This document shows positions 18,021-23,498 of a stretch of 64,000 nucleotides of DNA, in pieces. Source of the DNA: Candidatus Rokubacteria bacterium CSP1-6 (GTDB lineage: Bacteria; Methylomirabilota; Methylomirabilia; Rokubacteriales; CSP1-6); NCBI GenBank assembly GCA_001443385.1, contig LDXP01000003.1, forward strand, positions 33,755 through 97,754, given 5' to 3'. The position numbers and the translations under genes are program-made. Position 1 is the first letter of the stretch. The number at the start of each line of letters is the position of its first letter. Under the pieces are notes generated by a model, which searched no databases, was not told where the DNA came from, and worked only from the letters and a program-made list of their open reading frames with translations.

Positions 18021-18026
18021 ACGCCG

Positions 18027-18113
18027 GAGGGGTGGCCGAGCGGTTGAAGGCGCCGGTCTTGAAAACCGGAATCCCGCAAGGGATCGGGGGTTCGAATCCC
18101 TCCCCCTCCGCCA
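18027..18113 (+). tRNA. tRNA-Ser (anticodon TGA)
   Basis: Cloverleaf with GGAGGGG acceptor, anticodon loop CTTGAAA, long variable arm, T-loop TTCGAAT, and an encoded CCA. Confidence 0.85.
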
Positions 18114-18116
18114 AAT

Positions 18117-18190
18117 CCTCGGAGGGGGGCTCCGCCCCCCTTCCGACGCCCCGCGGCAAAGCCGGCGCGCGAAGCACGCGCGCTTTCGCC
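18117..18190 (+). repeat. Intergenic G/C-rich hairpin repeat, copy 1
   Basis: The 30-nt core CCTCGGAGGGGGGCTCCGCCCCCCTTCCGA is identical to the core at 48886 and to the reverse complement of 62491-62519; followed by the GGCAAAGCC hairpin motif. Confidence 0.8.
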
Positions 18191-18230
18191 AGAGCCCGGA
18201 ATGCCTTATAGTGGGTAGGCTTGACGCTTG

Positions 18231-18324
18231 GGAGAGGTGGCCGAGTTGGCCGAAGGCAGCCGCCTGCTAAGCGGTTACAGGGGCAAAACCTCTGTCCCGG
18301 GTTCGAATCCCGGCCTCTCCGCCA
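18231..18324 (+). tRNA. tRNA-Ser (anticodon GCT)
   Basis: Acceptor GGAGAGG, anticodon loop CTGCTAA, long variable arm, T-loop TTCGAAT, encoded CCA. Confidence 0.85.
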
Positions 18325-18326
18325 TC

Positions 18327-18403
18327 GCGCCCATAGCTCAGTTGGATAGAGCGTCGGACTACGAATCCGAAGGCCGCAGGTTCAAGTCCTGCTGGGCGCA
18401 CCA
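18327..18403 (+). tRNA. tRNA-Arg (anticodon ACG)
   Basis: GCGCCCATAGCTCAGTTGGATAGAGC... with anticodon loop CTACGAA and encoded CCA; 2 nt after tRNA-Ser(GCT). Confidence 0.9.
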
Positions 18404-18407
18404 TTTC

Positions 18408-18440
18408 GACCCCCCGGGAGGGCGCCACTCTCGGGGGGTC
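18408..18440 (+). terminator. GC-rich hairpin after the tRNA pair (GACCCCCCGGGAG...CTCTCGGGGGGTC)
   Basis: A 12-13-bp near-perfect inverted repeat right after tRNA-Arg; no U-tract, so the terminator or processing role is inferred. Confidence 0.4.
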
Positions 18441-18480
18441 CTTCGCTTCGCTGCCTGACCCCATCGTCCGGGTGTGCTAG

Positions 18481-18960
<480 letters not shown>

Positions 18961-18962
18961 TG

Positions 18963-19058
18963 CGGAGGGGTGGCCGAGCCCGGTTGAAGGCGTCCGACTC
19001 GAAATCGGATAGGGGCCCAGAAGGTCCCTCGGGGGTTCAAATCCTCTCCCCTCCGCCA
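18963..19058 (+). tRNA. tRNA-Ser (anticodon CGA)
   Basis: Acceptor GGAGGGG, anticodon loop CTCGAAA, long variable arm, T-loop TTCAAAT, encoded CCA. Confidence 0.8.
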
Positions 19059-19061
19059 TAT

Positions 19062-19154
19062 GGAGAGGTGACCGAGCGGCCGAAGGTGCGGCATTGGAAA
19101 TGCCGTGCACGGGTAAACCCTGTGCCGTGGGTTCGAATCCCACCCTCTCCGCCA
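19062..19154 (+). tRNA. tRNA-Ser (anticodon GGA)
   Basis: Acceptor GGAGAGG, anticodon loop TTGGAAA, long variable arm, T-loop TTCGAAT, encoded CCA. Confidence 0.85.
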
Positions 19155-19171
19155 TTTGGGACATACAGCGT

Positions 19172-19441
19172 GGCCGTGCTAGACGGGGAGGTAGCGGTGC
19201 CCTGTAGCCCGCAATCCGCTACAGCGGGGTTGAATCCCCTCTCGAGGCTTCTTCGCGTTGAATGAGCTTCACGGGGCGGCGTTGAGGGTTGGGCCCCACG
19301 CAACGAGAATCGTCGAACCCCGCCAGGCCCGGAAGGGAGCAACGGTAAGGCGACCCTCTCGTGTGCCGTGGGAGTACCTGACCGGAGCAGGTTCCGTGGA
19401 GAGATCGCAGGGCGAGCGAGGTCGATTGAGGGTGCACGGCC
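19172..19441 (+). ncRNA. ffs: Signal recognition particle RNA, large (Bacillus-type) form with an Alu domain
   Basis: 5' GGCCGTGCTAGACGGGGAGGTAGCGGTGCCCTGTAGCC...GGGGTTGAATCCCC resembles the Alu-domain start of B. subtilis scRNA. Domain IV motif CCAGGCCCGGAAGGGAGCAAC...GTGTGCCGTGGGAG is present. The 3' end GGTGCACGGCC pairs with the 5' end. Sits immediately upstream of dnaX, as in many bacteria. Confidence 0.75.
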
Positions 19442-21471: not shown

Positions 21472-22074
21472 GTGGCGTATTACCCCGAACCCGTTGCCCG
21501 CCTGATCGAGGCCTTCCAGAAGCTGCCGGGCATCGGCCCCAAGACGGCCCAGCGACTCACCTTCTTCCTCCTCAAGCGCCCCCCCGAGGAGGTCACCGCC
21601 CTCAGCGAAGCGCTCGCCCGCGTCAGGGCCCAGATCGTCAACTGCTCGGTCTGCTTCAACGTGACCGAGGAGGATCCCTGCCGGATCTGCACGGATCCCT
21701 CGAGGGACGGGAAGAGCCTGTGCGTGGTGGAGGAGCCCAACGATCTCCTCGCCCTCGAGCGCACCGGGCAGTACCGGGGCCGCTACCACGTGCTCCTGGG
21801 CGCGCTGTCGCCGCTCGACGGCATCGGCCCGGAGGACCTCCGCGTGCGGGAGCTGCTGGCCCGGCTCGAGACTCAGCCGGTGGACGAGGTGATCCTCGCC
21901 ACCAACCCCAACGTGGAGGGCGAGGCGACCGCGATCTACCTGGCGAAGCTCCTGAAGCCGCTCGCGGGCCGGGTGACCCGGATCGCGCGCGGCCTCCCTG
22001 TGGGGGGGGACCTCGAGTACGCCGACGAGGTTACCCTGGGCAAGTCGCTGGAGGGGCGCAAAGAGATGGGGTAA
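21472..22074 (+). CDS. recR: Recombination protein RecR
   Basis: HhH (LPGIGPKTAQRL), C4 zinc finger (CSVCFNVTEEDPCRIC) and Toprim domain. Confidence 0.92.
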   Translation: MAYYPEPVARLIEAFQKLPGIGPKTAQRLTFFLLKRPPEEVTALSEALARVRAQIVNCSVCFNVTEEDPCRICTDPSRDGKSLCVVEEPNDLLALERTGQYRGRYHVLLGALSPLDGIGPEDLRVRELLARLETQPVDEVILATNPNVEGEATAIYLAKLLKPLAGRVTRIARGLPVGGDLEYADEVTLGKSLEGRKEMG

Positions 22075-22140
22075 GGCGAAGCGAGATCGAGTAAAATAGC
22101 CATGTTCCCCGGTAGCTCAACCGGTAGAGCAGGTGGCTGT

Positions 22141-22700
22141 AAGGAGGGTGAACAGGTGGCCGGTGGGCGGACATACGCTGATCGCCGCGAGTATCTCATC
22201 AAGGCCGTCCAGAAACGGCGTAAGGAGGTGCGCCGGAAGGCGCTTGTTTACAAGGGCGGCCGTTGTCAGAAGTGCGGTTATGATCGGTGTATGGAAGCGT
22301 TGGAGTTCCACCATCTGAACTCCTCGCGTAAGGATTTTGGGATCTCCAGTCAAGGGCATACCCGCAGCTGGAACAAGATCCGCGAGGAGTTAGAGAAGTG
22401 CGCGCTCCTTTGCGCCAACTGCCATCGAGAAGTTCACGCCGGACTGCAGCTTCCACAGGAAACTGTGGCTGTAACATCGGGTGAATTCAGGGAAGCCTAC
22501 CCCGGAGTCGTCGCGATTTCGGCACGGTAATCCTGAGCGAAGCCTGCCGAAGGGCCAGCGCGTAGGCAGGAACGTGCAGAGACTAGAGGCTGAGGAGCCC
22601 ATCCAATAAAGCCTCGCAAGCGCCCGACACCCTCCCTGGATCCGATGATCGAGGTGGGTGAAGAGATAGTCCGAGCCCAGTAGAAATGCTGGGGCACTCG
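22141..22700 (+). mobile_element. Group I intron (~560 nt) in the tRNA anticodon loop, carrying an HNH endonuclease ORF
   Basis: Core element R (GTGCAGAGACTAGA, 22574-22587) and S (AAGAGATAGTCC, 22661-22672) form P7. A Q-like AATCCTGAGC lies at ~22528. The intron ends in G (22700); the 5' exon ends in U. Confidence 0.75.
22156..22530 (+). CDS. HNH homing endonuclease (intron-encoded)
   Basis: Motifs CQKCGYDRC...EFHHL...N...CALLCANCHREVH (zinc-finger HNH). GTG 22156 lies 8 nt after GGAGG. The longer ATG at 22102 would overlap the tRNA 5' exon. Confidence 0.75.
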   Translation: MAGGRTYADRREYLIKAVQKRRKEVRRKALVYKGGRCQKCGYDRCMEALEFHHLNSSRKDFGISSQGHTRSWNKIREELEKCALLCANCHREVHAGLQLPQETVAVTSGEFREAYPGVVAISAR

Positions 22701-22740
22701 TAACCACAAGGTTGCAGGTTCGAGTCCTGCCCGGGGAGCC

Positions 22741-22781
22741 ATAAAACAAAAACGGCCGTCGGAGGTGACTCCGCCGGCCGT
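22741..22781. terminator. Bidirectional hairpin terminator (ACGGCCGTCGGAG-GTGA-CTCCGCCGGCCGT) with an A/T-rich flank
   Basis: A 13-bp stem; on the minus strand it is followed by UUUUUGUUUUAU, terminating the convergent minus-strand gene, and it also follows the tRNA 3' end. Confidence 0.6.
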
Positions 22782-22823
22782 TCGTCTCCAAGTGGCCCGT
22801 ACTGTCCGAGGCGCGGCCACCCT

Positions 22824-23498
22824 TCAGTCGACCCGTTCGCCCAGAACGGACGAGGAGGGCGCGGGCGGGACGGGTCCTTCGAGCCGGTCCTTCAGCGCCT
22901 TCAGGGTCTGGACCGCGCCCTGCTCGCCGGCGCCGCGCGTGAGAAAGGCCGGGAGCGTGGTGCGGCCGCCCATCGCGTAGGTCACGAGCACCCCCTGGTC
23001 CCAGGGCTCGACCTTCCAGTACCCCCATTGATCGCGGAAGAGGTCGTTGTCTCGGCCGCGGTCCAGCTCCCAGCGGAGCAGGTGGGCGGCCGCGTCGGCG
23101 TAGTTGTTGACGTGGAAGCGGAAGGCGAACGGGCCCACGGCGACGCGGTAGCGGACGAGGGTGCGATCGCCGCCGCGTTCGAGCACCGCGCTCTCCTTCA
23201 CCCGGGGAAACAACCCCGCGTGGCCGGGGAAATCCACGAGCGTCCGCCAGACGGTGTCGGGGTCGGCCTGGAGCAGCGCCAGAGCGGTTCCCCCCATGGC
23301 GCCGCCGGCGGAGCCCCCGGCCGGAATCTCGCTCTTGAAGAGGATGCGCCCCTGCCGCAGCAGGCGCTCGTCGGTGGACGACAGCGTCAGATCGGCCGTC
23401 ACCGGGTGGGGAAGGGACAGGAGCAGGACGAGGGCGAGGAGCGCCGGCGCGCACCGCGTCCGGCGCGCGAGCCGGCCCAACCGAGGACCGAGGGACAT
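22824..23498 (-). CDS. Secreted SRPBCC-fold (START/polyketide-cyclase-like) protein
   Basis: Signal peptide MSLGPRLGRLARRTRCAPALLALVLLL... and SRPBCC-like sequence; start set at the internal M (23498). Confidence 0.6.
   Translation of the reverse strand: MSLGPRLGRLARRTRCAPALLALVLLLSLPHPVTADLTLSSTDERLLRQGRILFKSEIPAGGSAGGAMGGTALALLQADPDTVWRTLVDFPGHAGLFPRVKESAVLERGGDRTLVRYRVAVGPFAFRFHVNNYADAAAHLLRWELDRGRDNDLFRDQWGYWKVEPWDQGVLVTYAMGGRTTLPAFLTRGAGEQGAVQTLKALKDRLEGPVPPAPSSSVLGERVD

Follow-up and report, generated by a model that had tools for sequence, protein, structure and literature searches.

A 64,000-nucleotide (nt) stretch of the Candidatus Rokubacteria bacterium CSP1-6 genome (contig LDXP01000003.1, positions 33,755 to 97,754; hereafter the window) carries a tRNA-Asn(GUU) gene that is interrupted in its anticodon loop by a 560-nt group I intron, and this intron in turn carries a gene for a small HNH endonuclease. 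We read the element as a mobile, IA1-like group I intron of the tRNA-Asn 35/36 family, with proposed splicing and homing activities, and place the probability of this reading at about 0.8. The feature is real and well formed, and it is very probably functional. A first-pass annotation of the window had proposed a tRNA gene interrupted by a group I intron with an HNH endonuclease gene inside it; Rfam, ARAGORN and PHROG searches bear this out, as does a split tRNA in 85 of 86 loci with homologous HNH genes. The same annotation had left the splice junction open between an Asn and a Thr product, and this is now settled by an intron-less allele of the same locus.

The interrupted tRNA-Asn gene and its splice junction

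Run in intron mode, ARAGORN reported a tRNA-Asn(gtt) gene at 22106-22741, with a 560-nt intron (22141-22700) between tRNA positions 35 and 36. All features described here lie on the forward (+) strand. The 5' exon (22106-22140) supplies the acceptor, the D-arm, the 5' strand of the anticodon stem and the loop residues C32, U33, G34 and U35. The 3' exon (22701-22741) supplies U36, A37 and A38, the 3' strand of the anticodon stem, the variable loop, the T-arm, the acceptor, G73 and an encoded CCA. When ARAGORN was run in its plain mode, five tRNAs were found in the window and Asn was not among them, so genomes of this kind look devoid of tRNA-Asn. Standard tools miss the split gene or label it Thr, and estimates of genome completeness suffer. 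ARAGORN and Rfam found no other tRNA-Asn within the 64-kilobase (kb) window; if the interrupted gene were the sole copy, all asparagine decoding would depend on ribozyme splicing.

An intron-less allele was sought among contigs encoding exactly the same RecR protein as the window. One of these, L088, has an uninterrupted tRNA-Asn gene at the same recR locus, with exons identical to those of the window. It reads GGCTGTTAACC, i.e. GGCTGT/TAACC across the junction. Since the bases flanking each boundary differ, only boundaries at 22140/22141 and 22700/22701 reproduce this allele. The two tRNA halves had been assigned to one gene at first pass, and the ARAGORN call and the identity of the exons to the uninterrupted allele agree with this; they are not unrelated pseudogene fragments. 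An exon U before the intron and a G at the intron end, both already recognized in the window, are present in 81 of 81 homologues, and the terminal guanosine (omega-G) is fixed at 22700 by covariation in P9.0, which alternates between GAG/CUC, AAG/CUU and other pairs. The acceptor stem of the window tRNA is of the U1-A72/G73 type. A U1-A72 pair together with G73 is a feature of tRNA-Asn, as in the tRNA-Asn of E. coli. The allele, the conserved U and omega-G, the P9.0 covariation and the acceptor stem all place the join after U35, giving Asn(GUU).

The competing possibility was a junction after U33, based on a P1 pairing of GGCU with GGCC near the start codon of the endonuclease gene, with tRNA-Thr(CGU) as the product. 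ARAGORN accepts this alternative spliced sequence as tRNA-Thr(cgt), it labels 12 homologous loci Thr, and the same two-base ambiguity has been described for related introns (PMC13011429). The uninterrupted allele, however, carries GTT and not CGT, and only the 35/36 junction can yield it, so that the Thr reading is excluded on this ground. A junction after U33 would also make the intron end in U rather than G, against the P9.0 covariation that places the terminal G at 22700, and the U1-A72 pair and G73 speak for Asn. The GGCC segment belongs to the start-codon region, varies with the Met-Ala codons and is not conserved; the guide is instead GCAGCU at 22446-22451, and GCAGCY is found in 80 of 80 homologues. 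We therefore prefer this guide, and regard a Thr product as having virtually no chance of being correct.

The group I core and the endonuclease gene in its P1 loop

The Rfam Intron_gpI covariance model (RF00028) matched 22390-22693 over its full length (model positions 1-253) with 75.5 bits (E = 2.3e-17), above the gathering score of 50. A P1-P9 model was made on the window and projected onto a MAFFT alignment of 80 homologous introns from which the open reading frame (ORF) had been deleted. The 48 core pairs of P2, P3, P4, P6, P6a, P7, P8, P9.0 and P9 were 97.7% canonical in these introns, and 33 of the 48 showed changes on both sides. In a control in which the 3' partner was slid by 1-3 columns, only 30-43% of pairs were canonical and 12-15 were changed on both sides. 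A group I core can thus be folded by hand from P1 to P9 with backing from covariation, and all core helices are preserved in the window. The elements called R-like, S-like and Q-like at first pass correspond in the Rfam alignment to the 5' strand of P7, its 3' strand and the 3' strand of P4, respectively.

In the P1 helix, the exon end GGCUGU (22135-22140) pairs with the internal guide sequence GCAGCU (22446-22451). U22140 makes the U.G wobble found at the 5' splice site and kept in 80 of 80 homologues, while G30 pairs with either U or C. The GCAGCY guide is invariant and lies directly 5' of P2 in all 80. P2 is the hairpin CCACAG-GAAA-CUGUGG (22453-22468), in which all six pairs are canonical in every one of the 80 introns, with 2-4 pair types per position. 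The 5' strand of P3 (22477-22483) pairs with 22621-22627, located from the covariation alignment, and four of the seven pairs show compensatory changes. P4 (22487-22492 with 22531-22536) encloses P5 and P5a (22495-22528) within 22487-22536, as placed by the Rfam alignment; P4 covaries, and P5a is variable and poorly aligned. P6 (22537-22538 with 22574-22575) and P6a (22543-22548 with 22565-22570) occupy 22537-22575, with compensatory changes in six of six P6a pairs. The guanosine-binding helix P7 is made up of G22579, the bulged A22580 and GACUA (22579-22585), paired with UAGUCC at 22667-22672. P7 is invariant in the alignment, its 5' strand in 80 of 80 homologues, and agrees with the Rfam consensus AGACUA/UAGUC; its 3' strand was located by the Rfam match and the homologue alignment. 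P8 (22628-22660) was predicted with RNAfold and its basal five pairs covary. P9.0 (22673-22675 with 22697-22699) surrounds P9 (22676-22693), which has a GAAA loop and 3-6 pair types per position; together they span 22673-22699.

Between P7 and the 3' strand of P3, a P7.1-type hairpin with a conserved 18-nt loop was folded by hand (22586-22615, GAGGCU ... AGCCUC) and shows partial covariation. An extra hairpin at this place is a hallmark of subgroup IA. The provisional IA1-like designation combines this hairpin with the 85% identity of window 22445-22700 to the IA1-classed intron of Nitrospira japonica. We also considered GUGGCUGUAA at 22466-22475, a near-repeat of the splice junction at 22133-22142, as a pseudo-substrate or duplicated homing site. 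Homologues read GGUUGAAA at this place, so the 10-mer is a coincidence of the window lineage within P2/J2-3, and the candidate was rejected.

The endonuclease ORF (22156-22530) encodes 124 amino acids (aa) from a GTG start to a TAA stop at 22528-22530, as given by the ORF list, the PHROG match and the alignment, with the HNH domain ending near residue 95. The first 7 nt of the intron, AAGGAGG (22141-22147), read as a Shine-Dalgarno-like sequence 8 nt before the GTG and would act as the ribosome-binding site; a purine-rich motif within the first 22 nt is found in 60 of 81 homologous introns. The protein matched phrog_2255 among the PHROG HNH families (E = 1.3e-30), and homologues show little or no variation at residues C37, C40, H52, H53, C86, N88, C89, H90 and H94 (alignment A1). 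The zinc-finger HNH motifs CQKC...EFHHL...CANCH that had been pointed out in this ORF thus hold up, and the catalytic motif is intact, zinc ligands included. Among the homologues collected for the intron analysis, homology searches having been suggested at first pass, all 85 with a complete intron at their locus belong to tRNA-Asn introns.

The position of this gene becomes clear from comparison with the tRNA-Asn intron of N. japonica (GCF_900169565.1), which is entered in Table S5 of PMC13011429 as 248 nt, ORF-less and of subgroup IA1. That intron begins aaaacuu-GCAGCU-UCCACAGGAAACUGUGG, with the guide 7 nt past the splice site, and has the same guide, P2 and core as the window intron. It differs in its P1 loop, which is 7 nt rather than ~305 nt, and in having no endonuclease gene. 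The endonuclease gene therefore amounts to ~300 nt inserted into the P1 loop (L1), extending approximately from 22143 to 22444, and the window guide lies ~305 nt downstream of the 5' splice site.

The HNH frame does not end with the insertion. Its last ~28 codons run on through the P1 guide strand and P2, into the 5' strands of both P3 and P4, and through P5. The resulting protein tail, LQLPQETV..SGEFREA, is conserved among intron-borne homologues, but the ORF-less intron contains these nucleotides too and most free-standing viral homologues match only up to residues 94-107, so that we read the tail as translated ribozyme and not as a functional domain. Since the frame overlaps the ribozyme core, a ribosome in this region and a folded core would exclude each other on one molecule. 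In some homologues, such as P0009 (L001 3001-3504), P0075 and P0094, the HNH frame is open through most or all of the core and encodes 167-184 aa (167 aa for P0009); the position of the stop is thus not conserved. One sub-lineage of this tRNA-Asn intron, mostly of Omnitrophota (L037, L045, L056, L060, L065, L073, L076, L080, L081 and L084), carries an additional GC-rich hairpin immediately behind the 5' splice site; its ORF begins later and its P3/P4 sequences differ (e.g. GCAGGAGAAUUGCUGG).

The intact core and exons also bear on whether the locus might be dead, with the halves and intron a pseudogene and a functional tRNA-Asn elsewhere in the genome. The tRNA-Asn search covered the 64-kb window, and a second copy outside it is possible. 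Nevertheless, both exons are identical to those of the uninterrupted allele and form a canonical cloverleaf, no core helix has been lost, the window has no other tRNA-Asn, and the Patescibacteria genomes used in published splicing assays have no copy of that tRNA besides the interrupted gene (PMC13011429). A dead locus is accordingly very improbable.

From these features we propose the following course of events for the mobile intron. The precursor tRNA would be transcribed, maybe by read-through from the dnaX-ybaB-recR genes upstream: a promoter scan of 21900-22900 found no sigma-70-like site, and with no promoter found between recR and the tRNA, read-through may occur. The only terminator-like match in the same interval falls within the ORF and is no more than chance would give. 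The exon end GGCUGU would pair with the guide ~305 nt downstream to form P1 with its U35.G wobble, and P3-P9 would fold about the guanosine site in P7. An external guanosine would attack after U22140, and the terminal G22700, set by P9.0, would direct exon ligation to give a 76-nt tRNA-Asn with the loop CUGUUAA; self-splicing of the window intron is what its fold predicts. The HNH gene would be translated from a ribosome-binding site of its own where the intron begins, translation and ribozyme folding presumably being mutually exclusive on one RNA molecule. The putative enzyme would cleave or nick tRNA-Asn genes that lack the intron, close to the anticodon loop, and repair from an intron-bearing copy would spread the intron by homing.

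Alleles, homologues and mobility

The intron is present in the window and in five further contigs with the same RecR (L087, L089, L090, L091 and L092), and absent from L088. The flanks of the intron-minus contig are identical to those of the window at 2585 of 2602 positions upstream and 1300 of 1300 downstream. There is thus an intron-plus/intron-minus polymorphism in one population. The spacer between recR and the tRNA is 17 nt in the intron-minus contig (TAACATGAATTCGTTGT, stop codon counted; L088:2604-2617) and 34 nt in the intron-plus locus (window 22075-22105). The two spacers are unrelated, though the flanks beyond them are 99-100% identical, and the intron-plus spacer has TAAAAT about 9 nt before the tRNA. 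The possibility that this spacer is a co-converted flank was rejected, as the closest relative with identical exons (L007) has unrelated upstream sequence.

Homologous HNH genes were collected at 86 loci, 6 from look-ups of four proteins in a protein search and 80 by scanning a single genome for each bacterial species. The one locus of the 86 without a split tRNA is cut by a contig end. After correction of miscalled boundaries, all the other 85 are tRNA-Asn genes whose 5' exon ends in ...G(G/A)CUGU, whose intron ends in G and whose 3' exon begins UAA(C/U). In reference genomes we confirmed at least 551 HNH loci. They are found in Nitrospirota, Acetothermia/Bipolaricaulota, Acidobacteriota, Omnitrophota, Elusimicrobiota, Bacillota, Clostridia and Desulfobacterota-type lineages, in metagenome-assembled genomes labelled Deltaproteobacteria, and in Planctomycetia, Binatia, Aerophobetes and others. 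Across unrelated phyla the HNH proteins at this same tRNA site are 62-84% identical to that of the window. An ORF-carrying intron in an Asn/Thr tRNA had been thought possibly uncommon, a view that neither this count nor the existence of a published class (10.1101/2020.01.27.920355; PMC13011429) sustains.

Three Nitrospirota introns from Table S5 of PMC13011429 (GCA_951812745.1, GCA_958295805.1 and GCF_900169565.1) form a decay series when compared with the window. A 347-nt intron keeps the start codon and a CxxCH remnant of the HNH gene, a 283-nt intron has nothing left of it but the ribosome-binding site and the final codons, and the 248-nt intron of N. japonica is the ORF-less form. Homing endonuclease genes are expected to pass through such a decay stage in their life cycle.

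Several observations weigh against an active mobile element. The lone intron-less allele could be a precise loss instead of pointing to a gain, and the large internal deletions in the HNH remnants of the 283- and 347-nt introns show that the gene does decay. The Pfam HNH model (PF01844) gave the window protein 19.8 bits, just under its cut-off of 21.4, an NCBIfam search with the HNH protein gave no match, and in a sequence search of the PDB the only match was a weak one (6ME0, E = 0.0018), to a group II intron maturase in its endonuclease domain. No extra DNA-binding domain could be recognized in this small protein, which would nevertheless have to read a long target, and an AlphaFold2 model from an 18-sequence alignment had a mean predicted local distance difference test (pLDDT) score of 54 and was unusable. 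As for splicing, P1 has to close over ~300 nt, and P10, in which the 3' exon would pair with bases lying 5' of the guide, is by hand weak in the window and only fair in some homologues; we claim no P10.

On these grounds the intron might still splice but be an immobile vertical passenger, with an inactive or decaying endonuclease and with the L088 allele a precise intron loss. The remnants and the ORF-less form, the Pfam score and the lack of a recognized DNA-binding domain all favour such a history. Yet the window ORF is intact with all catalytic residues and zinc ligands, as are relatives in other phyla at 62-89% identity; HNH proteins so similar in unrelated phyla, always at the same tRNA site, are hard to fit to vertical descent; and plus and minus alleles coexist between nearly identical flanks. 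We consider a purely vertical passenger unlikely. The allele polymorphism, the cross-phylum spread of the HNH gene and the decay remnants favour an element that is probably mobile now or was so recently. The plus/minus pair, together with ORF-less and ORF-decayed relatives, offers material for testing homing by a very small HNH enzyme, and the same material suits the study of an endonuclease gene that overlaps a ribozyme core.

Phage relatives, published introns and genomic setting

Viral homologues were taken from IMG/VR contigs (loci L095-L174) and from two cultured phages (L175 and L176). Homologues of the HNH core, at 45-62% identity, occur at 559 or more viral loci, nearly all as free-standing genes in phage tRNA arrays. 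Among 68 distinct viral loci, 44 have a tRNA-Asn no more than 400 nt away from the HNH gene. The first tRNA upstream of that gene is tRNA-Asn at 20 loci, and the first one downstream is tRNA-Asn at 23. In Bacillus phage Bastille (L175, JF966203.1 5002-7668, AEQ34205.1) a tRNA-Asn gene, the HNH gene and a second, 68-nt tRNA annotated as Asn stand in a row, the second receiving no call from ARAGORN. Klebsiella phage Muenster (L176, MT708547.1, QOE32633.1) likewise has a free-standing homologue beside tRNA-Asn. In the viral loci examined no group I intron overlapped the HNH genes, L095 being the only intron-borne case. The 194-nt and other short "introns" that ARAGORN placed in phage tRNAs (L117, L105 and L148) had no group I match and were discarded as miscalls. 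The Muenster locus also contains a strong, unannotated group I intron match of 104 bits (L176:384-632; record 302840-303088), which seems to interrupt a further tRNA gene lying just upstream of the tRNA-Asn gene and the HNH gene.

These phage genes share the HNH core and the tRNA-Asn neighbourhood of the window gene, but they lie outside introns and are without the ribozyme-encoded C-terminal tail. SegB of phage T4, from the T4 tRNA cluster, belongs to the GIY-YIG family. It is comparable in concept, being a homing endonuclease that acts within the tRNA region of a phage (PMC13096335).

A free-standing phage HNH gene beside tRNA-Asn fits an origin from an endonuclease that already targeted tRNA-Asn DNA. 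Invasion of an ORF-less intron by an endonuclease is a route reportedly proposed by Bonocora and Shub. We suggest, at somewhat less than even odds, that a phage-type endonuclease specific for tRNA-Asn may have invaded the P1 loop of an ORF-less intron, and that the composite then spread across phyla by way of the near-universal tRNA-Asn anticodon arm. If this is true, the spread has been far wider than the Patescibacteria-only picture drawn from complete genomes.

Among introns at other sites, the tRNA-Leu(UAA) intron of cyanobacteria and plastids, a self-splicing group I intron, resembles that of the window in its anticodon-loop location and its U.G wobble at the 5' splice site. It differs in lying at position 34/35, in belonging to IC3, in normally lacking an ORF and in its size of ~220-250 nt. 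The Synechocystis-type tRNA-fMet(CAU) intron encodes the PD-(D/E)XK endonuclease I-Ssp6803I. Like the window element it is a bacterial anticodon-loop group I intron with a homing endonuclease gene (PF11645 examples, PMC13011429), but the tRNA and site (33/34) are different and the endonuclease family is unrelated. In the accessible part of Table S5 of that study, fMet 33/34 introns of Desulfobacterota, Nitrospirota and Omnitrophota are classed as IC3.

Introns of tRNA-Asn at 35/36 are a published class. Williams (2020) raised the number of known tRNA settings of group I introns from 4 to 21 (bioRxiv 10.1101/2020.01.27.920355), and the label used there for this class is Asn.4Ug, as quoted in PMC13011429. 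In the latter work, Nakagawa et al. (2026) classed most tRNA-Asn 35/36 introns in subgroup IA and recorded cases from Nitrospirota, Cyanobacteriota, Bacillota_A, Bipolaricaulota and Pseudomonadota. In their data four tRNA-Asn introns of Patescibacteria contained HNH genes; among complete genomes such HNH-bearing introns were present only in Patescibacteria, and the authors expected that draft genomes might show more (PMC13011429). The window element shares with this class the tRNA, the insertion site and the Asn/Thr two-base annotation ambiguity (10.1101/2020.01.27.920355; PMC13011429). The HNH protein of Patescibacteria GCA_000503835.1 is identical to that of the window at 43 of 75 positions; its gene has the same location within the P1 loop, and the frame continues into the same guide-P2 sequence. 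Because HNH-bearing 35/36 introns have been published and one has so similar a protein at the same place, the window element belongs to a known class.

It differs from the published members in its host, Rokubacteria (Methylomirabilota), a phylum not listed in PMC13011429. The restriction of HNH-bearing members to Patescibacteria among complete genomes likewise contrasts with the many phyla represented by the reference-genome loci found here. In vitro self-splicing was shown for an ORF-less Patescibacteria tRNA-Asn 35/36 intron (PMC13011429), whereas the window intron is known from its sequence. What is added to the published picture is modest: the introns with HNH genes are common outside Patescibacteria, a matched plus/minus allele pair exists, and phage relatives lie beside tRNA-Asn.

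The recR gene (21472-22074), identified by Pfam RecR domains, matches KRT75261.1 of Candidatus Rokubacteria bacterium CSP1-6 exactly, and the YbaB protein matches KRT75260.1 of the same organism exactly. The end of recR at 22074 agrees with the placement of the tRNA just downstream of it at first pass. Further upstream, at 18026-19439, four tRNA-Ser genes (TGA, GCT, CGA and GGA) and a tRNA-Arg(ACG) gene lie directly upstream of a large-type signal recognition particle RNA (185.8 bits). The dnaX-ybaB-recR genes come next, recR being the last of the three, and the split tRNA-Asn gene ends this run of RNA and replication genes.

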